Below, piece by piece: positions 1 to 62,321 of a DNA stretch of 64,000 nt. The notes beneath the pieces were generated by a model, which saw only the letters and a list, made by a program, of their open reading frames with translations, did no database searches and was not told where the DNA came from. The DNA is from an uncultured Verrucomicrobiaceae bacterium. Lineage in GTDB: Bacteria > Verrucomicrobiota > Verrucomicrobiia > Verrucomicrobiales > Verrucomicrobiaceae. The position numbers and the translations under genes were made by a program. Positions within the stretch are counted from its first letter, which is position 1; every line of letters begins with the position of its first letter. The DNA lies in contig CALJZZ010000122.1 of assembly GCA_937983425.1 (NCBI GenBank), forward strand, positions 99,285 through 163,284, written 5' to 3'.

Positions 1-84
1 ACTTGGCGTCCGCGCTGGATTGGGTGGCTGCATACAGACCCGTGAGGGTCAGGATGAGGGCAAGAGACAGAAACAATGTTTTCA
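1..84 (-). CDS. 5' end of a secreted-protein gene continuing past the left window edge
   Basis: ATG at 84-82 followed by MKTLFLSLALILTLTGLYAATQSSADAK, a signal-peptide pattern. It is preceded by a ~50-nt AT-rich spacer (85-135). It conflicts with the open Cys-rich frame listed next. Confidence 0.35.
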
Positions 85-530
85 TAGATAAGTAAGTTTG
101 AATGGTTTGAATGAACTGAAGTCGGCGGAGTGCCGACGTGGTGGGAGTGGTGCGGGGGCTTCGGAGGCGGCAAAGGAGGCCGCTCCGTGCGAGAAGGGGC
201 ACGCTGCGACAAAGGACGAATGCCTTGAGCATTGAGCGGGCGGGTCTGCGGAGCACCCATCACCAAAGGGGGCATGGTGGACGCGAGGTGCAGACAGCAG
301 GCGCAGTCGCAGCCTTGATCGGTGTCCTGGCAGGGGCACTCGGAGTGGTGCGTGGTGTTGTCTGCCGACATGTCTTTGCAGCAGGTCATCTCACACGCAG
401 CCATCCGGGGTGAGCACTGCCCCTGATGCGCCTGGCTCCACGGCACCGCAAACAACGGCAACAGCACGACGAGCATGATCCAGGTGATCATGCGGCGCTG
501 TTGGCGGTGATGGAGGTCGGTGGAGAACAT
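85..530 (-). CDS. small membrane-anchored Cys/His-rich protein; 3' end unresolved (no in-frame stop before window edge)
   Basis: Hand translation from ATG 530-528 gives MFSTDLHHRQQRRMITWIMLVVLLPLFAVPW (TM helix). This is followed by QCSPRMAACEMTCCKDMSADNTTHHSECPCQDTDQGCDCACCLH (10 Cys in 43 aa) and then a Pro/His-rich tail. It is not in the ORF track because the frame runs off the edge. It starts 9 nt after the adaptor gene stop. Confidence 0.35.
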
Positions 531-1250: not shown

Positions 1251-2522
1251 TTAGTTTTTGGTGGTGATGAGGCTGCCGGGTGCGCCGGTGAGTTCTTCAA
1301 GTGTGAGCGCGGCCTCCAGCGCCTCGGTTTGCGTGCTGTGGATGGCCTCGACGGCTTCGAGATACTTGTCCTGAAGCTCGACAAAGGTGCTCATGGGCAC
1401 GGCACCGAGTCTGAAATGCCTGTCCGCTAGCGCGGCGGCATCGCTGAACTTCGTGACGGCATCGCCCTTCCACACGGCAAGGCGTGCCTGCTGCGTCTGG
1501 TAGATGAGCATGCTCTCGGTGACCTGCCGCTCCACCTCGCGCTGCGCGGCGGCGAGCGTGGCCTGTGCCTGCATCTGGCGTGCCTCGGCATTGGAGACTT
1601 CCGCTTTGCCATTCTTCCAAAACGGCAGCGGGAAGGAGATGCCGATGCCTGCCACGGTCTGGTCATCCAGCGTGCGGGTGTTTTGCACCTCGACGAAGGG
1701 GCCGATGGTGAAGGCGGGATAGCGCTCGTTCTTTGCCAGCTCGACCTTGAAGCCCTGCTGCTCCAGCTCGGCACGGCGCAGGCGCAACTCGTAATGGTTC
1801 TTCATTGCGGAGCCGAGGAGGGAGAGCAGCGCAGGCGCGGCCTTGGCATCCAGCGGGCCGCGCTTCACGATGAGCGGCGCGTCGGCACGGCGGCCCATGA
1901 GTTGGTTCAGCTCCAGCAGCGCCTTTTGCACTACGACACCAGCTTTCGCTGCGCGCGACTCTGCCACGAGCGCCGCTGCCTCAATGGTAGCGATCTCAAG
2001 CTGAGGAGCGATGCCCGCTGGCTCGCGTTGCACCATCACCTCGCGCAGTGAGGCATAGCGTGCGGCGACTTCATTCGCGGCATTGGCGAGATCTTGCTGC
2101 GCTGACAACGTGAAGGCCAGCACGCGGACACGGGCGGCGAGATGAAAGCGAAACCGCTCCAGCCCCAGCTCCGCCATAGCGATGTCGCGGTTCGCGATGG
2201 CCTTGCGCAAACCCAAGCGGCCCGGCCACTCGATGGGCTGCGCCAGCTCGGCGGAGAAGGCTAGGCCGTTCGAGCGGCTGTCGGCGTTGCGGATGTGGTT
2301 GTTGCCGACTTGCAGGCTCAGCTCCGGGTTCGACTGCCTGCCCGCCGTGCTGCGAGTCGCCTTCGCCGCTGCGACCTCCGCCTCATAGAAGCGGATTTCA
2401 GGATTCCCCGCGAGCGTGCGGCCCACGAGACTGGAGATGGAAGACGGCTCCGGTTTGGAATCCGCCGCGAGAAGCTGCGGCACAGCAGCGAGCAGCAGAG
2501 ATGAAAGGATGAATAAGCGCAT
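1251..2522 (-). CDS. TolC/CzcC-family outer-membrane efflux protein
   Basis: Signal peptide MRLFILSSLLLAAVPQLLAAD from ATG 2522; the track ORF extends to 2555. There are two long coiled-coil/beta repeats typical of OMF proteins. A 13-nt gap separates it from the adaptor gene. Confidence 0.75.
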   Translation of the reverse strand: MRLFILSSLLLAAVPQLLAADSKPEPSSISSLVGRTLAGNPEIRFYEAEVAAAKATRSTAGRQSNPELSLQVGNNHIRNADSRSNGLAFSAELAQPIEWPGRLGLRKAIANRDIAMAELGLERFRFHLAARVRVLAFTLSAQQDLANAANEVAARYASLREVMVQREPAGIAPQLEIATIEAAALVAESRAAKAGVVVQKALLELNQLMGRRADAPLIVKRGPLDAKAAPALLSLLGSAMKNHYELRLRRAELEQQGFKVELAKNERYPAFTIGPFVEVQNTRTLDDQTVAGIGISFPLPFWKNGKAEVSNAEARQMQAQATLAAAQREVERQVTESMLIYQTQQARLAVWKGDAVTKFSDAAALADRHFRLGAVPMSTFVELQDKYLEAVEAIHSTQTEALEAALTLEELTGAPGSLITTKN

Positions 2523-54690: not shown

Positions 54691-54715
54691 CCGGTGCGTG
54701 ACGCTGCACATTTCG

Positions 54716-54848
54716 TCACGCAAGCATCTCTTTCATCACGTGGCCTTCCACGTTCGTGAGGCGGCGCCGGACGCCGTTGTGCTCGAAGGTGAGGCGTTCG
54801 TGATCGAGGCCGAGGAGGTGGAGGATGGTGGCGTTGAAGTCGTGGAGC
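54716..54848 (-). pseudogene. orphan 3'-terminal fragment (last 43 codons + stop) of a DUF1501 gene
   Basis: It encodes [43 protein letters not shown]. It is ~93% nt-identical (hand alignment) to 60784-60906, the 3' end of the intact DUF1501 gene. Homology stops at 54848, where an in-frame TAG occurs. Confidence 0.85.
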
Positions 54849-54980
54849 TATTGGCTTTCATATTTCGATGACCGGCAGCAAAGCCCCTCAACAGTCCCGT
54901 CCATTCAGCTTCCTATAAGTCCTTGGATGGAATTCGAAATTCACCATTGATTAGTGTTAAATTTACACCACAGATCGTGT

Positions 54981-55664
54981 ATGCCTCACACTTACCAGTA
55001 TCCGCGTGCCGCGCTGACCGTGGACTGCGTTGTTTTCGGCTTCGATGGAAGCGAGCTTCAGGTCCTGCTCATCCGCCGCGCCCTGGAGCCGTTCAAGGAC
55101 CGCTGGGCGCTGCCCGGCGGCTTCGTACGGGTCGAGGAAACGCTCGATGAAGCCGCGCGTCGTGAGCTGGAGGAGGAAACCGGGCTGCGGGATGTCTTTC
55201 TGGAGCAGCTTTACACCTTTGGCACCGTGAAACGCGATCCGCGTGAGCGTGTCGTCAGCGTAGCGTGGTTCGCGCTGGTGAAGCCCTCCGTTGTCACCGC
55301 CGACACCGACGCCGCCGAGGCCAAGTGGTTTTCCGTCAACGACGTTCCACCGCTCGCTTTCGACCACGCCTCCATCCTCGCCACCGCGCTCACCCGTCTG
55401 CGCGGCAAGCTCACCTACCAGCCCGTCGGCTTCGAGCTGCTGCCGCCGAAATTCACCCTCACCCAGCTTCAGCGCCTCTACGAGGCCGTCCTTGGCGAGG
55501 AGCTCGACAAACGAAACTTCCGCAAAAAAGCCCTCAGCCACGATCTCCTCATCCCCCTCAAAGAAAAACATCAGGAAGGCGCCCACCGTCCCGCCCAGCT
55601 CTTCCGCTTCGATCCGGTGAAATATGAGAGGCTGAAGAAGAAGGGCTTCTTGTTTGAGATATGA
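54981..55664 (+). CDS. nrtR: NrtR-like Nudix hydrolase / winged-helix transcriptional regulator (ADP-ribose responsive family)
   Basis: An apparently intact Nudix box [23 protein letters not shown] plus the C-terminal [28 protein letters not shown], characteristic of NrtR. The track ORF starts at 54954. Confidence 0.8.
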
Positions 55665-56002
55665 AAACCATCACCCTCTACCGTCCCGTCGGACCGAAAG
55701 AACTCGCCCTGATCGAGCAAAGCGGATGGAAAGCCTTTCCACCGCGTCTGCCAGACCAGCCGATCTTCTATCCCGTGATGAACGAGGAATACGCCATCCA
55801 GATCGCCCGCGACTGGAATGTGCCCGCCTCCGGTTCCGGTTTCGTCACCCGCTTCGCCGTCGATGCCGATTTCCTCAGCCGCTACGTCAAGCAAGTCGTG
55901 GGTGGCGACATGCACCGCGAACTCTGGGTGCCTGCGGAAGAACTGGAAGAGTTCAATCAACACATCATCGGCCTCATCGAGGTCACCCAACGATTCCCAT
56001 GA
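55661..56002 (+). CDS. conserved-looking 113-aa protein of unknown function
   Basis: [53 protein letters not shown]...[22 protein letters not shown] overlaps occur at both ends (55661, 55999). Confidence 0.7.
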
Positions 56003-56625
56003 CACTTTCGATTCAACCATATCTCGAACAACTGCCGCACTGGCCGCAAAGCGGCCGCCACATCCTCGCGCAGTTCGACCATGATTCGATCATCGTTTAT
56101 CAGGCATACCGGCCCTCGATTGCGCGATTCGCAGTCGAGCACCAGCGATTTGGCGGCGAGTTCAGCTACAGCCGCATGAGCTGGATCAAGCCCAACTTCC
56201 TCTGGATGATGTTCCGCTCAGGCTGGGCCGCCAAGGAAGGCCAGGAGCATATTCTTGCCGTCCGTCTTCAAAGACGCTTCTTCGATGACGTGTTTGTGTC
56301 CGCCGTGGCTTCCAACTACGGCGCCAGCGGCTTCTCCACGCACGAGGACTGGCAGTCCGCCGTGGCAAACTCCGACGCGCGCCTCCAGTGGGATCCAGAT
56401 CACGATCCGCTCGGCCACTGCGTCGAGCGCCGTGCCGTTCAACTTGGCCTCCGGGGTGAAATGCTTCGACGCTACGGTCAGGAGGTCGTCCTGAGCATCG
56501 AGGACATCACTCCTTTCGTGGTCGAGCAGCGCGCTAATTTGAAGAATGATTTCACCGATCTCAAAACTCCTTCAGAACGAGTTTACCAACCTTCGGGGCC
56601 ACTCACCCATTCACAACTCCCATGA
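55999..56625 (+). CDS. DUF4291-like protein
   Basis: ILAQFDHDSIIVYQAYRPSIA...RMSWIKPNFLWMMFRSGWAAKEGQEHILAV matches my recollection of the DUF4291 signature. Starts at ATG 55999. Confidence 0.65.
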   Translation: MTLSIQPYLEQLPHWPQSGRHILAQFDHDSIIVYQAYRPSIARFAVEHQRFGGEFSYSRMSWIKPNFLWMMFRSGWAAKEGQEHILAVRLQRRFFDDVFVSAVASNYGASGFSTHEDWQSAVANSDARLQWDPDHDPLGHCVERRAVQLGLRGEMLRRYGQEVVLSIEDITPFVVEQRANLKNDFTDLKTPSERVYQPSGPLTHSQLP

Positions 56626-57167
56626 CCCCCGCCCAAACCACCCGCGCCAGCAAGTTCCTCAGCCTTGTCCTGCGGCATGAACCGGGAGCCGCGCATGTCA
56701 CGCTCGATTCCGCCGGTTGGACGGCGGTGGAGACGCTCCTGGCCGGGTGTGCCCACGCGGGAAGACCGCTATCGCGCGCGGACCTGGAGCACATCGTCGG
56801 CACAAATGCGAAGAAACGCTTCGAGTTCAGTGTCGACGGCCTGCGCATCCGCGCCAGCCAGGGGCATTCGGTCGAGGTGGCGCTGGAGTATGCGGCGCAA
56901 GCGCCTCCGGAACTCCTCTTTCACGGCACCGCGACACGCTTCCTCGATTCCATCCGCGTAAAAGGCCTGCTCAAAATGCAGCGCCATCATGTGCATCTGT
57001 CCGCAGAGACCCGCGTCACCCTGGAGGTCGGCGCACGTCATGGAAAACCGGTCCTACTGACCATCCTCGCCAGCCAGATGCACAACGAAGGGCATGTCTT
57101 CTATCGCAGCACGAACGGCGTCTGGCGTATCGAGCATGTGCCGTCATTCTTCATCCATTTTCCATGA
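56622..57167 (+). CDS. kptA: RNA 2'-phosphotransferase, Tpt1/KptA family (NAD+-dependent)
   Basis: SKFLSLVLRHEP, RIRASQGHS, LFHGT, RHHVHLS: all four catalytic-motif regions are present. Confidence 0.88.
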   Translation: MTPAQTTRASKFLSLVLRHEPGAAHVTLDSAGWTAVETLLAGCAHAGRPLSRADLEHIVGTNAKKRFEFSVDGLRIRASQGHSVEVALEYAAQAPPELLFHGTATRFLDSIRVKGLLKMQRHHVHLSAETRVTLEVGARHGKPVLLTILASQMHNEGHVFYRSTNGVWRIEHVPSFFIHFP

Positions 57168-57661
57168 ACCAGCACATCCCTATCAACTATATGACGGGCG
57201 ACGCTACCCGGCCTGCTGGCGTTGGTCCCGCAATCATCGCTCATATCTGCAATGACGTTGGTGGGTGGGGCGCAGGCTTCGTGATGGCACTTTCCAAGCG
57301 ATGGAAGGAACCCGAGGCTCAATACAGGCTTTGGTTCAAAGGCAAGATAGCAGACGCTCAGCCCTTTTCGCTTGGCGAGGTGATGCTGGTTGAGGTAGGC
57401 ACGGGTGTTCATGTGGCAAACATGATCGCACAGCACGGCATACGCTGGCAGGGCAACGAGCCGCCTATCCGGTATGAAGCTCTGGATCAAGCCTTGGGCA
57501 GGCTGGCAGATGCAGCACATCGGATCGGTGCCTCTGTTCACATGCCGCGCATTGGGTGTGGGCTGGCTGGCGGCACATGGGAGCGCGTCGAGCCGCTGAT
57601 TCAATCCCGGTTGTCTGATCGTGGCATCGCCGTCGTGGTCTATGACTTTGCCGAATCATGA
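57164..57661 (+). CDS. macro-domain protein (ADP-ribose/Appr-1''-p processing)
   Basis: YMTGDAT...AIIAHICNDVGGWGAGFVMAL...VHMPRIGCGLAGGTW. Starts at ATG 57164 (ATGA overlap). Confidence 0.8.
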   Translation: MNQHIPINYMTGDATRPAGVGPAIIAHICNDVGGWGAGFVMALSKRWKEPEAQYRLWFKGKIADAQPFSLGEVMLVEVGTGVHVANMIAQHGIRWQGNEPPIRYEALDQALGRLADAAHRIGASVHMPRIGCGLAGGTWERVEPLIQSRLSDRGIAVVVYDFAES

Positions 57662-58683
57662 GGCACCCACTTCCAGACTCCATTCTTGGCTGCCTGCTCG
57701 GCACGGCAGCGGGAGATGCGCTGGGCCTGCCCTTGGAACGATTGACCCGGCGGCGCATCCAACACTGGACGGGAGCCGAGTTGCGTCACCGGCTTGTCTT
57801 CGGTTGTGGAATGCTGAGCGACGACACGGATCACACGCTGATGCTGGCCGCGGCGCTGCGTCGGCATTGCGATGACGCGGCCGCGATGCAGCGAGATTTC
57901 GGCCGCCAGTTGCGCTGGTGGCTGGCGGCGCTGCCCGCAGGCGTGGGATTGAGCACGGCGCGGGCGATCTTGAGGCTATGGATCGGTTTTCCAGCCTCCA
58001 GATCCGGCGTGAAATCGGCAGGCAATGGCGCGGCGATGCGTGGTGCGATTGTCGGCGTGATCTTTCGCGATGACGCGGCGATGCGGCATGAATTCGCCCT
58101 CGCAGCCTGCCGGGTGACCCACACCGACCCACGCGCGGAGGAATCCGCGCTGCTGGTGGCCGAGGCGGCGGCCCTGGCGGCACACCATGCGGAAACAAAA
58201 ACCGTCCTCGACACTCTGCGACCGCTGGTGACGAGTGAGGAGATGAAATCGCGCTTCGCAGCCATGGAAACCGGCCTGAGCGAAAAAATCAGCGTCAGCG
58301 ACTACGCGGCACGGATCGGCTGCGAGCATGGCGTGAGCGGTTTCGCGCCGAACTCGGTCGCGGCGGCGCTTTTTGGCTGGCTGCGGCATCGCGGCGATTT
58401 CGAGCGCGTTTTGACCGAACTCATCGTCTGCGGTGGCGACACGGACAGCGTGGCCGCCATTGCGGGAGGCATCTGCGGCACCGAAACGGGCGAAAGCGGC
58501 ATTCCAAAGGCGTGGATCACAGGAATCCGCGACTGGCCCCGCTCCGTCACCTTCATCCGCAGCATGGCGCAGGAAAGCGTCGCGCCGCCACGCGTGCTCT
58601 GGCCTGCCATGCTGCTCAGAAATCTCTTTTTTCTCGGCGTGGTGCTCACGCATGGTTTTTGCCGCTTGCTTCCACCTTATTGA
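57658..58683 (+). CDS. ADP-ribosylglycohydrolase family protein (DraG/ARH-like) with hydrophobic C-terminal tail
   Basis: GTAAGDALGLPLE, MLSDDTDHTLM, GNGAAMR, CGGDTDSVAAIAGGICG. The tail reads LLRNLFFLGVVLTHGFCRLL. Confidence 0.85.
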   Translation: MRHPLPDSILGCLLGTAAGDALGLPLERLTRRRIQHWTGAELRHRLVFGCGMLSDDTDHTLMLAAALRRHCDDAAAMQRDFGRQLRWWLAALPAGVGLSTARAILRLWIGFPASRSGVKSAGNGAAMRGAIVGVIFRDDAAMRHEFALAACRVTHTDPRAEESALLVAEAAALAAHHAETKTVLDTLRPLVTSEEMKSRFAAMETGLSEKISVSDYAARIGCEHGVSGFAPNSVAAALFGWLRHRGDFERVLTELIVCGGDTDSVAAIAGGICGTETGESGIPKAWITGIRDWPRSVTFIRSMAQESVAPPRVLWPAMLLRNLFFLGVVLTHGFCRLLPPY

Positions 58684-58713: not shown

Positions 58714-59739
58714 ATGTTCGGCCTTCGATTCATCAAGATTCCACCCACGACGCATGTTATTCAACACAGCGGCGGCAAAGTCGTCCGCGAGGGCGCGGGG
58801 ATTTCGTTCTTTTATTACTCGCCCACGACCTCGCTCGTGGCGGTGCCGGTGGGCAGCACGGACGTGCCGTTCATCTTTGAGGAACAGACAGTGGATTATC
58901 AAAGCGTGAGCCTGCAGGGCCAGATCACCTACCGCATCGCGGAGCCGAAGAAGGTGGCGGGGCTGATGGACTTCACGCTCGCGCCCAACGGACGCGGCTA
59001 TGCCTCGGAGGATCCGGAGAAGCTGCCGCAGCGTGTGATCAATCTCGTGCATGTGCTGGCGCGCGCGGAGATCGAGAAACTGCCGCTGCGGCAGGCATTG
59101 CGCGCTTCGGAGACGTTGGTGACGGCGATTCGCGCTCAACTCGGCACCTCGGCGGAGCTGGCGGCTCTGGGGATCGAAGTGCTGGGCCTTTCGCTGCTGG
59201 CGATCAAGCCGACACCGGAGACGGCGCGTGCTTTGGAGGCGGAAACACGCGAGCAACTGCTCAAGGGCGCGGACGAGGCCATCTTCATGCGGCGCAATGC
59301 CGCCGTGGAGCAGGAGCGCGCGATCAAGGAGAACGAGCTGAACACCGAGATTGCCGTGGAGAACAAGAAGCGGCAGATTCGCGAGACACAGATGGACGCG
59401 GAGAAGGCGGTGCAGGAAAAAGAGGCGCAACTGGAGCGCGCGAAGCTGGAATCGAGCATCGGTCTCGAAGACGAGCGCAAGAAGCTGGTGGCGCTGGCGG
59501 CTGAGAACGCAAAAGCGGAGTCCGACACACGCGCCTACGGCATCGAGGCCACGATGAAGGCGCTCGCCAGCACGGACGCGGCCGTGTTGCAGGCGCTGGC
59601 GACCAGCGGCATGAGGCCGCAGCAGTTGATCGCGTTCGCCTTCCAGGAACTGGCCGCGAAGGCGGACAAGATCGGCAATTTGAACATCTCGCCGGAACTG
59701 CTGAGCGAGTTGCTGGCGAATCCGGGATCGAAGAAATGA
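58714..59739 (+). CDS. SPFH/band-7 domain protein with long C-terminal coiled coil
   Basis: SPFH-like core (...VSLQGQITYRIAEPKKVAGLMDF...LGIEVLGLSLLAIKPTPETARALE) followed by a charged coiled coil. Confidence 0.7.
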   Translation: MFGLRFIKIPPTTHVIQHSGGKVVREGAGISFFYYSPTTSLVAVPVGSTDVPFIFEEQTVDYQSVSLQGQITYRIAEPKKVAGLMDFTLAPNGRGYASEDPEKLPQRVINLVHVLARAEIEKLPLRQALRASETLVTAIRAQLGTSAELAALGIEVLGLSLLAIKPTPETARALEAETREQLLKGADEAIFMRRNAAVEQERAIKENELNTEIAVENKKRQIRETQMDAEKAVQEKEAQLERAKLESSIGLEDERKKLVALAAENAKAESDTRAYGIEATMKALASTDAAVLQALATSGMRPQQLIAFAFQELAAKADKIGNLNISPELLSELLANPGSKK

Positions 59740-59835: not shown

Positions 59836-60774
59836 ATGAACCGCCTGACTGAAACGAAGATCATCCTCGTCGTGCGCGCGACGCGGCTGGCGGATTTGAA
59901 GGCGAAGTTCGCGACGAAATCGCAGGCAAAGTTTTATGTGAGCCGGCTGGGCGGTGATTTCGGCGATTACGAGCGCGAGGACGCCGCCTACCAGCAGTCC
60001 ATCGCACAAACACGACGTACCCTCGGCGAATTGGGGCGCGTGCAGCTCGTGCAGCGGGCTTTTCTGCCCAATTTCGTGTTTGGAGAGCAGGACATCGTGG
60101 TGGCGCTGGGTCAGGACGGATTGGTGGCAAACACCTTGAAGTATCTCAACGGCCAACCGCTCGTGGGCGTGAATCCGGACCCGAAACGCTACGACGGCCA
60201 GCTTCTGCCATTCCAGGTGCCGCAGCTCGACAAGGTGATGCGCGAGGTGCTGCGCGGCGGACGGTCAAAACGCGAGGTAACGATGGCGGAGGCGAAATTG
60301 AACACCGGCCTGAGCCTGTGCGCGGTGAACGATCTCTTCATCGGCATGAAATCCCACGGATCGGCGCGGTATCGCATCGCGCTGGGCAATACGGCGGAGA
60401 ACCATTCATCCAGCGGTGTGATCGTCTCGACCGGCCTCGGTTCCACGGGCTGGTTCAAAAGCCTGATGGCGGGTTCGATGGCAGTGGCGGTTGCCTCAGG
60501 CCGTGCGGCGGCCACCGAGCCAAAGGACACGAGTTTCCCGTGGGAATCGAATCACCTCTTCTTCACCGTACGCGAGCCTTTCCCGAGCAACACAACCGCC
60601 GCAGCGCTGGTTTTCGGTCAGGTGACGGCGCAGCAGCCGCTTGTGATCGAATCGCTGATGGGCGAGAACGGCGTCATTTTCAGCGACGGCATCGAGCAAG
60701 ACTTTATCGAGTTCAACTCCGGAACCAAGGCGACGATTTCAATCTCGAAGCGCAAAGGAAAGCTGGTCGCATGA
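59836..60774 (+). CDS. diverged ATP-NAD kinase-family protein
   Basis: ALGQDGLVAN (compare GGDGT), VNDLFIG (compare NE), and SSGVIVSTGLGSTGW (compare DG.IVSTPTGSTAY). Confidence 0.65.
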   Translation: MNRLTETKIILVVRATRLADLKAKFATKSQAKFYVSRLGGDFGDYEREDAAYQQSIAQTRRTLGELGRVQLVQRAFLPNFVFGEQDIVVALGQDGLVANTLKYLNGQPLVGVNPDPKRYDGQLLPFQVPQLDKVMREVLRGGRSKREVTMAEAKLNTGLSLCAVNDLFIGMKSHGSARYRIALGNTAENHSSSGVIVSTGLGSTGWFKSLMAGSMAVAVASGRAAATEPKDTSFPWESNHLFFTVREPFPSNTTAAALVFGQVTAQQPLVIESLMGENGVIFSDGIEQDFIEFNSGTKATISISKRKGKLVA

Positions 60775-60780
60775 GTGGAG

Positions 60781-62232
60781 TCACACCACCATCTCTTTGA
60801 TCACACGGCCTTCCACGTTCGTGAGGCGGCGCCGGACGCCGTTGTGCTCGAAGGTGAGGAGTTCGTGGTCGAGGCCGAGAAGGTGCAGAATGGTGGCGTT
60901 GAAGTCGTAGAGCGGATGGATGTCCTTCACCGCTTTCTGGCCGAGTTCGTCGGTGACGCCGTGGCTGACGCCGGGCTTCACCCCGGCGCCAGTCATCCAG
61001 CAGGTGAAGCCGTCGGGATTGTGATCGCGGCCCTTCGCGCCTTTTTGGAAGAAGGGCATGCGGCCGAACTCGGTACACCAGACGACGAGCGTGTCCTGCA
61101 ACAGGCCGCGTTGTTTCAGGTCGCGGATCAACGCGGCGGCAGGCTGGTCGAGGATGCTGGCATGCACATCATACTGCGCCTTGAGATCGCTGTGGCCGTC
61201 CCAGTTGAGCTTGCCGCCGCTGGCGTAGGCGCCGTTGAAAAGCTGCACGCAGCGCACCCCGCGCTCGATGAGACGGCGGGCGAGGATGCAGTTCTTCGCG
61301 AAGGCGGCCTTGTCGGCGTTCTGCGTGTCGTCCGCGCCATACATTTTGAGAATGTGCGCGGGCTCGGTGCTGAGGTCGTTGATCTCGGGCACGCTGAGCT
61401 GCATGCGCGCGGCGAGTTCGTAGCTGGCGATGCGTGCGGCGAGCTTTTGATCGCCCGGGTTCGCTTCGAGATGCCTCGCGTTCATCTTTTGCAGCAACGA
61501 GCGGGCGGCTTGATCCGCCTGCGCGGACACACCAGGCGCGGAAAGATGTCGCACGGGGCTCTTCGAACTCATCGCGGTGCCTTGGAAGGCGGCGGGGAGA
61601 AAACCGGGTCCCCAGTTGTTGGCGCCATTCTGCGGCACGCCGCGTGGATCGGGAATGGCGACGTAGCTGGGCAGATTCTGGTTTTCGCTGCCGAGCGCAT
61701 ACGTCACCCACGAGCCGAGAGAGGGAAAACCATCGAGGGTGAAGCCGGTGGAGAGGAAATTCTCCGCCGGACCGTGCGTGTTGGATTTGCTGGTGAGCGA
61801 ATGTACGAAGGCGAGGTCGTCCGTCAGTTCCGCAAGATGGGGAATCATGTCGCTGACCCACTTGCCGGTTTGTCCGCGTGGTCGGAAGGTGTATTGCGGC
61901 CGCGCAAGATTGCCCGCCGGGCCTTGAAACGTCACCGCAGGTCCGCCGGGCAACGGTTTGTCGTCCCACTTGATGAGTTCGGGCTTGTAGTCCCATGTTT
62001 CGAGCTGGCTCACTGCGCCTGCGCAGAAGATGACGACGACATTCTTTGCCTTCGCCGGGAAGTGCGGTTGTCGCGGCGCATACGGCCGTGCCGGATCGAT
62101 CAACAGGCCGTCCGCGGCCAGCAGGCGCGTCAACGCGATCGAGCCCAGTGCTGTCGCGCTGCTTGAGAGGAAGCGGCGACGGTCGAGCAGGTGATGACCT
62201 GGGGGCGAGAGGTGTTCGGCGGAAGGAAGCAT
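60781..62232 (-). CDS. DUF1501 domain protein (sulfatase-fold) with Tat signal
   Basis: [18 protein letters not shown], plus TEFGRMPF...[21 protein letters not shown] and the conserved C-terminal [16 protein letters not shown]. Starts at ATG 62232. Confidence 0.85.
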
Positions 62233-62321
62233 GGACGGATGTCGGAAATGAAGAGCGCGTCTGGCACTCTCCACAACGCGCCGGGATTTTGCGTCCTATT
62301 GATGTCCACCGGAAAAATTTG

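Follow-up and report, generated by a model that had tools for sequence, protein, structure and literature searches.

What do two open reading frames (ORFs) contribute to a bacterial operon when they lie between an NrtR-type regulator and the RNA 2'-phosphotransferase KptA/Tpt1, and one of them has no family name? This question is raised by a stretch of 64,000 nucleotides (nt) from an uncultured Verrucomicrobiaceae bacterium (assembly GCA_937983425.1, contig CALJZZ010000122.1, positions 99,285 to 163,284), which is called the window in its entirety. Six genes lie there in series on the + strand, encoding NrtR, ORF1, a DUF4291 protein, KptA, a Macro domain protein and an ADP-ribosylglycohydrolase (ARH). 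Pfam names five of the six genes, and the exception is ORF1. An earlier note on this DNA had placed ORF1 and DUF4291 between the regulator and KptA and had joined them to their neighbors by ATGA overlaps, and both the coordinates and the overlaps are borne out. In this study, we tentatively favor the reading that ORF1 is an active, minimal ADP-ribosyltransferase (ART) that would work with KptA under ADP-ribose-sensing NrtR control, and we hold it with somewhat less than even confidence. All structural statements below rest on predicted models.

Fold and conservation of ORF1

ORF1 (55661..56002, + strand) encodes 113 amino acids (aa) and belongs to an unnamed family. It matched zero Pfam families and nothing significant in NCBIfam, and when both ORFs were searched against the PDB by sequence and by profile, the matches were at chance level or absent, with no similarity to RhsP2, the Pseudomonas aeruginosa RNA 2'-OH ADP-ribosyltransferase (PDB 7RT7). 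Because these searches were empty, the kinship of ORF1 with ARTs is visible through structure only. Relatives are abundant. A word-indexed search found at least 8000 at E ≤ 0.001, and those among the 120 matches listed are 77–93% identical to ORF1 and mostly unnamed or "hypothetical"; an exhaustive search of clusters at 50% identity found 2378 representatives at E ≤ 0.001, of which 1435 also pass E ≤ 1e-10. Even the homologues in Streptomyces, Bacteroidota and Proteobacteria share 65–80% identity with the Verrucomicrobial query, and such cross-phylum identity is unusually high for a protein of 113 aa. Both ORF1 and the DUF4291 ORF are real genes. In an alignment of 47 ORF1 sequences, P9, E14, L30, F36, Y37, F65, E87, W89, L95 and N99 are invariant, and R8, R29 and Q33 are among the positions conserved in at least 90%.

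The AlphaFold2 model of ORF1, built from its family alignment, has a predicted local distance difference test score (pLDDT) of 92.0 and a predicted template-modeling score (pTM) of 0.83. Its order is strand-helix-strand-helix-strand-strand-strand-helix-strand, with predicted strands at residues 3-10, 34-38, 60-68, 77-79, 86-88 and 102-112, and it contains the split six-strand beta-sheet core that is expected of an ART. When the model was compared with 48,161 chains by VIA-align, the best match was RhsP2 (7rt7_A, Z 9.7, root-mean-square deviation 2.1, 93 aligned residues), followed by diphtheria toxin (Z 8.5), TreTu (7.4) and KptA 9ld3 (6.6) and, with lower scores, by RES (5.9), CC0527/DUF952 (5.8) and Arr (4.8). 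ART-type domains make up nearly all of the 50 matches listed. The Foldseek matches in the PDB are likewise almost all ART-fold entries (Tpt1, RhsP2, DUF952/CC0527, RCD1, TreTu, pertussis toxin, Tne2, MbcT and RES), with weak E-values of 4e-3 or higher.

Two of these matches invite a closer comparison. DUF952/CC0527 (PDB 2O0Q, 2JQN; Foldseek E 3.7e-2) is, like ORF1, a minimal ART fold of about 114 aa; however, ORF1 has no match to PF06108, and its conserved residues and genomic context are different. The NAD+-binding lobe of KptA/Tpt1 also has the ART fold of ORF1 (Foldseek top matches, E 4e-3), and the two proteins share an operon and occur as natural fusions. However, KptA/Tpt1, which belongs to the H-H-h clade of ARTs (PMC9503650), has an additional RNA lobe at its N terminus and a catalytic set of R-H-R-R, whereas ORF1 has R-Y-E, lacks a PF01885 match and, at 113 aa, corresponds to one lobe. 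In the KptA family, R18-H19, R66 and R121 are invariant among 12 sequences.

We consider the predicted structure of ORF1 to be a minimal ART-fold domain whose closest solved structure is RhsP2, and we regard ORF1 as representing a new, minimal, non-toxin ART family. We found no paper on this family; since the family is nameless and cannot be searched by name, this is weak evidence, and it leaves aside the supplementary tables of PMC12522546, whose 51 known ART families could include ORF1.

Predicted active site of ORF1

RhsP2 depends on the triad R1490-Y1524-E1576, in which the Glu stands at the start of strand 5, the Arg contacts the pyrophosphate of NAD+ and the Tyr stacks on the nicotinamide; the variants R1490A and E1576Q are inactive (PMC12340436). 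ORF1 has conserved residues at these three catalytic positions, as placed by predicted strand: Arg8, Tyr37 and Glu87 lie on strands 1, 2 and 5 (residues 3-10, 34-38 and 86-88). The range aligned by VIA-align (model 1..110 to chain 1483..1614) puts R8 on R1490, and the triad spacings are alike, at 29 and 50 residues in ORF1 and 34 and 52 in RhsP2. The earlier note had reported no catalytic motif that could be named in either ORF. At the sequence level this stands, but it does not extend to the predicted structure, in which ORF1 carries an R-Y-E triad. A second R-Y-E ART is TreThr, which modifies tRNA-Thr (PMC13617354), and in the literature that we found, this triad occurs in RhsP2 and TreThr, both of which act on RNA.

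The resemblance to RhsP2 does not extend to its setting. RhsP2 is a secreted Rhs toxin of type VI secretion (T6SS) that is paired with an immunity protein and has a cationic RNA face (PMC12340436), whereas ORF1 is a free, acidic, 113-aa cytoplasmic protein that is encoded in an NrtR operon and highly conserved across phyla.

The first two triad positions also recall RES ARTs, which have R and Y there and make ADP-ribose-1''-phosphate (PMC9503650). According to this alternative, ORF1 would be a RES-type NAD+ glycohydrolase or phosphorylase, and the Macro protein would hydrolyze its ADP-ribose or ADP-ribose-1''-phosphate product. RES is among the structural matches of ORF1 (at the Z of 5.9 given above), and Macro and a nicotinamidase-like domain are among the fusion partners of ORF1. 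However, the third RES position is Asn rather than Glu (PMC9503650), an unregulated NADase that stands alone, as ORF1 does in most genomes, should be toxic, and the main fusion partner of ORF1, KptA, is left unexplained. We regard this alternative as improbable.

The DUF4291 protein

The second ORF (55999..56625, + strand, 208 aa) matches PF14124 over profile positions 1-180 of 180 (E 2.8e-63, 213.5 bits, cut-off 27) and nothing significant in NCBIfam, and a search for its relatives gave 7983 matches. Its AlphaFold model has pLDDT 92.6. RhsP2 stands far above every other structure in VIA-align (Z 11.4 over 134 aligned residues of 143; the next match has Z 5.5) and was also found by Foldseek (E 6.4e-6). 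RhsP2 is thus the best structural match of both ORFs, and DUF4291 is predicted to adopt a second RhsP2-like ART fold, larger than that of ORF1, in which the active site is non-canonical. When the ORF1 and DUF4291 alignments were compared profile to profile, no relation emerged (probability 0.9%). Read by eye, the two proteins share the local strings YRP and [FI][YK]P.

DUF4291 is already in print as a predicted ART. A 2025 survey of ARTs in pathogenic Legionella described it as the largest new atypical ART family, gave its motifs as QA[YF], WIK and [AS]IQ, and guessed at a protein substrate (PMC12522546). These motifs are present here as QAY 35-37, WIK 62-64 and AVQ 146-148, and Q35, A36, W62, I63, K64, A146 and Q148 are invariant in 35 sequences. 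The closeness to RhsP2 is what our analysis adds: PMC12522546 considers Exotoxin A and RES the closest families and makes no mention of RhsP2, whereas here RhsP2 alone stands on top. Because RhsP2 is by far the closest solved structure, we would expect an RNA-type target rather than a protein. The same 35 sequences have 54 invariant columns, including many polar residues; Q35, S61-W-I-K64, Q130-W-D-P-D-H135, R144-R145 and Q148 are invariant, and R38, inside the YRP string that resembles that of ORF1, is found in 32. The invariant WDPDH block and the RR pair are candidate site residues that the available part of PMC12522546 does not discuss. That paper also describes neighborhoods with NUDIX (18%), Macro and ARH (9-10%), PTS_2-RNA (10%) and TetR regulators (28%), and its NUDIX, Macro, ARH and PTS_2-RNA neighborhood is that of the window.

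Unlike RhsP2 and ORF1, DUF4291 has no conserved catalytic Glu at the start of strand 5 (predicted strand 141-151), which is also noted in PMC12522546; the four commonest residues at position 143 are E (25 of 35 sequences), Q (4), P (3) and A (2). This absence, together with the small size and acidity of ORF1, is in keeping with the idea that one or both proteins are non-catalytic and serve as an NAD- or ADP-ribose-binding sensor, as a targeting subunit, or as a regulator of KptA and of the fused hydrolases. The pseudo-ART domains of RCD1/SRO1 and TASOR are among the structural matches, and fusions to many ADP-ribose hydrolases and to KptA are what a reader domain would also show. However, the invariant Glu87 and Tyr37 and the near-invariant Arg8 occupy catalytic positions, ORF1 mostly stands alone outside Verrucomicrobia, and the invariant columns of DUF4291 include many polar residues. 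Because Arg8, Tyr37 and Glu87 are kept at catalytic positions, we favor catalysis for ORF1 and consider a purely binding or regulatory role unlikely.

Association with KptA across genomes

In the family of the window's bacterium, 81 genomes were sampled; these genomes are mutually related, and the counts are descriptive only. ORF1 is present in 24 of them, DUF4291 in 15 and KptA in 25. KptA accompanies ORF1 in 18 of the 24 ORF1-positive genomes and occurs in 7 of the 57 that lack ORF1, and in 16 of the 18 shared genomes the two genes are at most 2.5 kb apart (the exceptions are G159 and G166). DUF4291 and KptA occur together in 12 genomes and are adjacent in eight, whereas ORF1 and DUF4291 occur together in ten and are no more than 3 kb apart in five. 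Across the phylum, ORF1 was found in 3 of 151 sampled genomes.

Both the genome sample and 12 fetched cluster regions show that in relatives the two ORFs are again found together with KptA, Macro, ARH and NrtR. The earlier note had named the outcome that would have spoken against its proposal, namely fold families unrelated to nucleotide or ADP-ribose chemistry and a lack of co-occurrence with KptA and Macro. Instead, the AlphaFold models, Foldseek and VIA-align tie both ORFs to NAD/ADP-ribose chemistry through the ART fold, and the co-occurrence is found. NrtR is present in 10 of the 12 fetched clusters. Macro lies directly 3' of KptA in the window and in L084, L085 and L089, and the relatives' clusters contain one to four ARH paralogues. 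In L084, two DUF4291 copies flank ORF1. Nearly every genome has reassembled the module out of this common set of parts (L083-L091).

The gene order that the earlier note described as locked is found in this genome, but relatives shuffle the same genes. The fixed stoichiometry that it expected does not hold either, since relatives carry ORF1 without DUF4291 (L087, L088, L092 and L094) and DUF4291 without ORF1 (L089-L091), and the order varies. Because each occurs without the other, the two ORFs are not an obligate pair, and gene content indicates that they are independent accessory parts of an NrtR-controlled module. ORF1, KptA and DUF4291 are each split into two adjacent pieces in a different relative (G225:C12:69030-69385, G213:C59:56251-56720 and G210:C165:52249-52744, respectively), and these copies are probably frameshifted or decaying.

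Beyond these relatives, 81 ORF1 loci were compared (80 from other genomes and the window's own). At least one of NrtR, DUF4291, KptA, Macro and ARH lies within 6 kb in 19 loci, and KptA does so in 11; few sequences went into the hidden Markov models for NrtR, Macro and ARH, and these models miss divergent members, such as the MacroD-type proteins of L010 and L018, which were seen by Pfam only. Of 101 Streptomyces genomes sampled, 43 carry ORF1 and 83 carry KptA, and KptA is present in 41 of the 43 genomes with ORF1 and in 42 of the 58 without it. Five other ORF1 genomes have KptA elsewhere in three cases and none in two, and ORF1 also occurs in NrtR clusters without KptA (L092 and L094). A predicted complex of KptA (residues 1-181) with ORF1 scored 0.00 in both runs, which gives no verdict either way.

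The patchy distribution of ORF1, an accessory gene by the phylum and family counts above (3/151 and 24/81), might also suggest a toxin-antitoxin-like pair, in which an ART toxin (ORF1 or DUF4291) is neutralized by a DarG-like Macro protein or ARH. DarG is the best NCBIfam and PADLOC match of the Macro protein, and both ORFs resemble a toxin domain. However, Macro lies directly 3' of KptA and not of ORF1, and it occurs without ORF1 in L089. Moreover, ORF1 stands without any hydrolase in most loci, neither ORF has a match in PADLOC or PHROGs, and both are far too conserved for toxins. We consider such a pair very improbable.

Domain fusions of ORF1

A dedicated search for long ORF1 relatives found 1191 proteins, and the partner counts given here refer to the best 120 of these. 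KptA (PF01885) is the commonest partner (25 proteins), followed by DUF2489, a domain of unknown function (16 proteins, P0429, P0430 and 14 others, with matches below the Pfam cut-off in the two that were rescanned), NADAR and NUDIX (9 each), Macro (5), ARH and HEAT (3 each), and CoaE and a microbial-type PARG (2 each; the PARG fusions are P0445 and P0449). An isochorismatase/nicotinamidase-like domain, an IMPase-family domain, Tdi1_C, SUKH-1, GNAT and a methyltransferase occur once each, and 40 of the 120 have no Pfam domain. In a set of 82 long representatives, KptA, NADAR, Macro, YpsA/SLOG, Ham1 and GIY-YIG were found once each, NUDIX and ARH twice each, and a dual-specificity phosphatase and several unrelated domains were also present. 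The KptA, NADAR and ARH fusions come from several sources or from long contigs. In the KptA fusion, the ORF1 domain is C-terminal to KptA with about six residues between them. A phage protein joins the ORF1 domain to a GIY-YIG nuclease (31% identity, E 4.9e-6). One PARG fusion is encoded in the complete genome of Verrucomicrobium spinosum, and the ORF1 domain is also fused to the immunity-type domains Tdi1_C, SUKH-1 and barstar (P0399, P0435 and P0214). The PARG and immunity-type fusions hint that ORF1 has a protective or repair role.

The partner list bears on a proposal of the earlier note, namely that one of the ORFs could open the 1'',2''-cyclic phosphate of ADP-ribose (Appr>p) before the Macro protein can act. 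In the yeast pathway, Tpt1 is followed by the 2H enzyme Cpd1 and the macro protein Poa1; KptA and a Poa1/TARG1-class Macro protein would be the first and last steps here, but neither the operon nor the genome has a 2H enzyme, and the two extra ORFs have ART folds. Neither ORF has a 2H-like pair of HxT/S motifs, as the note itself had observed (ORF1 has no such motif and DUF4291 has a single HxS, H28-D-S30). Furthermore, neither ORF has a 2H Pfam match, and 2H chains are absent from the listed fold matches, although these are filled with ARTs and their absence is not excluding by itself. The proposal could take a form in which ORF1 opens Appr>p between KptA and a Macro phosphatase with an ART pocket that hydrolyzes rather than transfers. 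The genome of the window, which is 99.9% complete, has no 2H enzyme of PF13563 or PF02834, whereas 11 of 14 control genomes have one (a search with PF07823 was uninformative, with no match in any control genome). KptA is the top fusion partner; the Macro, Nudix, nicotinamidase-like, CoaE and IMPase-family fusions resemble consecutive steps of a pathway; and the class of the Macro protein includes ADP-ribose 1''-phosphate phosphatase. An acidic ORF1 fits a small-molecule substrate, and ORF1 is rarely found in a genome without KptA (6 of 24 genomes in its own family and 2 of 43 in Streptomyces). In addition, KptA itself is described as forming its cyclic phosphate inside an ART pocket.

Several facts speak against this form. 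We know of no ART-fold cyclic phosphodiesterase. The conserved Tyr of ORF1 corresponds to the nicotinamide-stacking residue of RhsP2 (PMC12340436). In the 81 genomes, ORF1 does not substitute for a 2H enzyme: PF13563 is commoner in genomes with ORF1 (12 of 24) than in those without it (7 of 57), and among KptA-positive genomes a 2H enzyme is present in 9 of 18 with ORF1 and 2 of 7 without. This association may reflect a shared RNA-repair tool kit or mere genome size. ORF1 also occurs without KptA in the NrtR clusters of L092 and L094 and in two of the five other genomes. The proposal is not supported, and we consider it, in its ART-pocket form too, rather unlikely. A 2H gene is never near the ORF1 cluster in these 81 genomes.

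A different part of the partner list, comprising glyoxalase/bleomycin-resistance, GNAT and methyltransferase domains, would suit a detoxification module in which ORF1 or DUF4291 ADP-ribosylates a small xenobiotic in the manner of the rifampin transferase Arr. ORF1 is small like Arr and was matched to it (Z 4.8, as above), the nearest named clusters in a feature search, which provides a lead only, are Arr-ms and DUF3990 (about 0.75), and the TetR regulators reported in DUF4291 neighborhoods (PMC12522546) are consistent with such a module. However, the closest ties are to KptA and to ADP-ribose hydrolases, and such hydrolases would reverse the modification; the best structural neighbor is RhsP2 and not Arr; and extreme cross-phylum conservation is unusual among resistance enzymes. 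We find this explanation distinctly improbable.

A proposed mechanism and its difficulties

We return to our favored reading, an active mini-ART that works with KptA. ORF1 would bind NAD+ and transfer ADP-ribose to the ribose 2'-OH or the phosphate of an RNA end or nucleotide, and KptA would contribute a basic RNA-binding lobe, which is missing from the acidic ORF1. DUF4291 may perform related chemistry through a remodeled site (R38, S61/W62/K64, D132/D134/H135, R144/R145 and Q148). The role of Macro and ARH would be to remove ADP-ribose adducts along with by-products, and the operon would stay repressed by NrtR until ADP-ribose accumulates. As a whole, the module would be an inserted, accessory island that provides an ADP-ribose-inducible kit to modify or repair nucleic acids. 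In the literature, KptA-like enzymes attach ADP-ribose to the 5'-phosphate ends of RNA and DNA, and this modification is reversed by Macro and ARH enzymes, whereas PARG is the only hydrolase class that reverses RhsP2-type 2'-O-ADP-ribosyl RNA (PMC11833690).

A number of observations weigh against this mechanism. Sequence searches detect no similarity between ORF1 and any ART family or PDB chain, and its triad match to RhsP2 is inferred from strand position and range arithmetic, without residue-level superposition. RhsP2 needs a cationic RNA-binding surface and an essential Lys1574 two residues before the Glu (PMC12340436); the ORF1 family lacks both features, being acidic (median isoelectric point 5.2, net charge -4) and having His85 where RhsP2 has Lys1574. 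Nor is ORF1 a toxin domain at the C terminus of an Rhs/T6SS effector that has an adjacent immunity gene, and a free-standing active RNA ART without such a gene should be toxic. DUF4291 adds the absence of the strand-5 Glu described above. In 62 of the 81 ORF1 loci, none of the five partners lies within 6 kb. Outside loci of the Verrucomicrobial type, the neighbors of ORF1 are mostly unrelated housekeeping genes by Pfam (115 same-strand flanking ORFs of loci L002-L042 were scanned, of 239 candidates from 80 loci). In Streptomyces, ORF1 is never near KptA and is at least 177 kb away when both are on one contig. The cross-phylum identity of 65-93% is unlike that of conflict enzymes and would fit a conserved small substrate equally well, and the hydrolase fusions fit a metabolic pathway as well as they fit a set of writers and erasers.

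Organization, regulation and borders of the locus

All five junctions of the six-gene operon are 4-nt ATGA start/stop overlaps, read from the sequence at 55661-55664 (NrtR/ORF1), 55999-56002 (ORF1/DUF4291), 56622-56625 (DUF4291/KptA), 57164-57167 (KptA/Macro) and 57658-57661 (Macro/ARH). Such overlaps are frequent in operons; they are unremarkable alone and carry little weight. The regulator (54954..55664, + strand) is an NrtR-type Nudix/winged-helix protein (Pfam NrtR_WHD E 3.3e-29, NUDIX E 9.1e-25), and its match to the NCBIfam ADPR-responsive repressor has E 1.7e-49 but is under the cut-off of that model. The ORF opens with GTG at 54954; because the start context ATGCCTCA is conserved, the true start is likely the ATG at 54981 (227 aa). 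KptA (56622..57167, + strand, 181 aa) matches PF01885 (E 3.7e-45) and NF002014 (E 1.8e-70), and ARH (57658..58683, + strand, 341 aa) matches PF03747 (E 6e-59). The Macro protein (57164..57661, + strand, 165 aa) has a weak Pfam match (E 5e-4). Its best PDB match is 5e3b (E 5e-57), which we take to be Streptomyces SCO6735; weaker partial matches are to ADP-ribose 1''-phosphate phosphatase, and DarG is matched at E 3.8e-7 in NCBIfam and E 5.5e-9 in PADLOC. These similarities place it in the SCO6735/TARG1/Poa1/DarG-like class. It also matches the phage "phosphatase" phrog_335 (E 1.1e-27).

ADP-ribose is the signal that regulators of the NrtR type sense (PMC9503650). Just upstream of the probable NrtR start lies a candidate operator for NrtR, TAGTGT-N8-ACACC (54952..54969, + strand), which overlaps the GTG that opens the ORF. 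The palindrome AGTGT-N8/9-ACAC(T/C) is found upstream of NrtR in the window's own locus (L001) and in L002, L010, L018, L035 and L045, and looser versions are found in L003 and L005. A scan for sigma-70 promoters and terminators gave a signal no better than that of shuffled sequence.

A direct repeat of 145 nt, with copies at 54715..54859 and 60780..60924 that are 88% identical and 6065 nt apart from start to start, brackets the NrtR-to-ARH operon together with an SPFH gene and a NAD-kinase-like gene. The right copy forms the 3' end of the DUF1501 gene at 60781-62274 (- strand). Because the repeat flanks both sides, it suggests that the island was inserted, and because the module is bracketed in this way and patchily distributed, we regard it as accessory. 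The gene that separates the operon from the NAD-kinase-like gene encodes the SPFH/Band 7 protein (58714-59739, + strand, E 3.1e-14). The NAD-kinase-like gene is a 312-aa ORF (59836-60774, + strand) inside the island that has no Pfam match but partially matches mitochondrial NAD kinase 2 (E 7.5e-6, residues 67-127). The position of a NAD-kinase-like gene beside a 2'-phosphotransferase operon may be meaningful.

Implications for bacterial KptA

The module resembles the ARH-centered Nudix/WYL operons, which have a Nudix-type regulator, ARH, an optional Macro protein and a variable composition and are predicted to counter viral ADP-ribosylation (PMC9503650). However, those operons were defined by the lack of a linked ART, whereas the clusters described here hold up to three (KptA, ORF1 and DUF4291).

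It is conceivable, although we hold it doubtful, that ORF1 is the missing partner that accounts for the retention of KptA by bacteria, either by making its RNA or nucleotide substrate or by disposing of its product Appr>p. If this were true, the disposal of Appr>p by ORF1 would represent a new catalytic use of the ART pocket, and ORF1, together with KptA, Macro, ARH and NrtR, would constitute the first complete ADP-ribose-inducible Tpt1 pathway in bacteria. ORF1 is a concrete, small and easily purified protein that can be tested beside KptA, Macro and ARH. If the predicted activities are confirmed, this locus would be a natural operon that combines several writers and several erasers of nucleic-acid ADP-ribosylation under ADP-ribose-sensing control.

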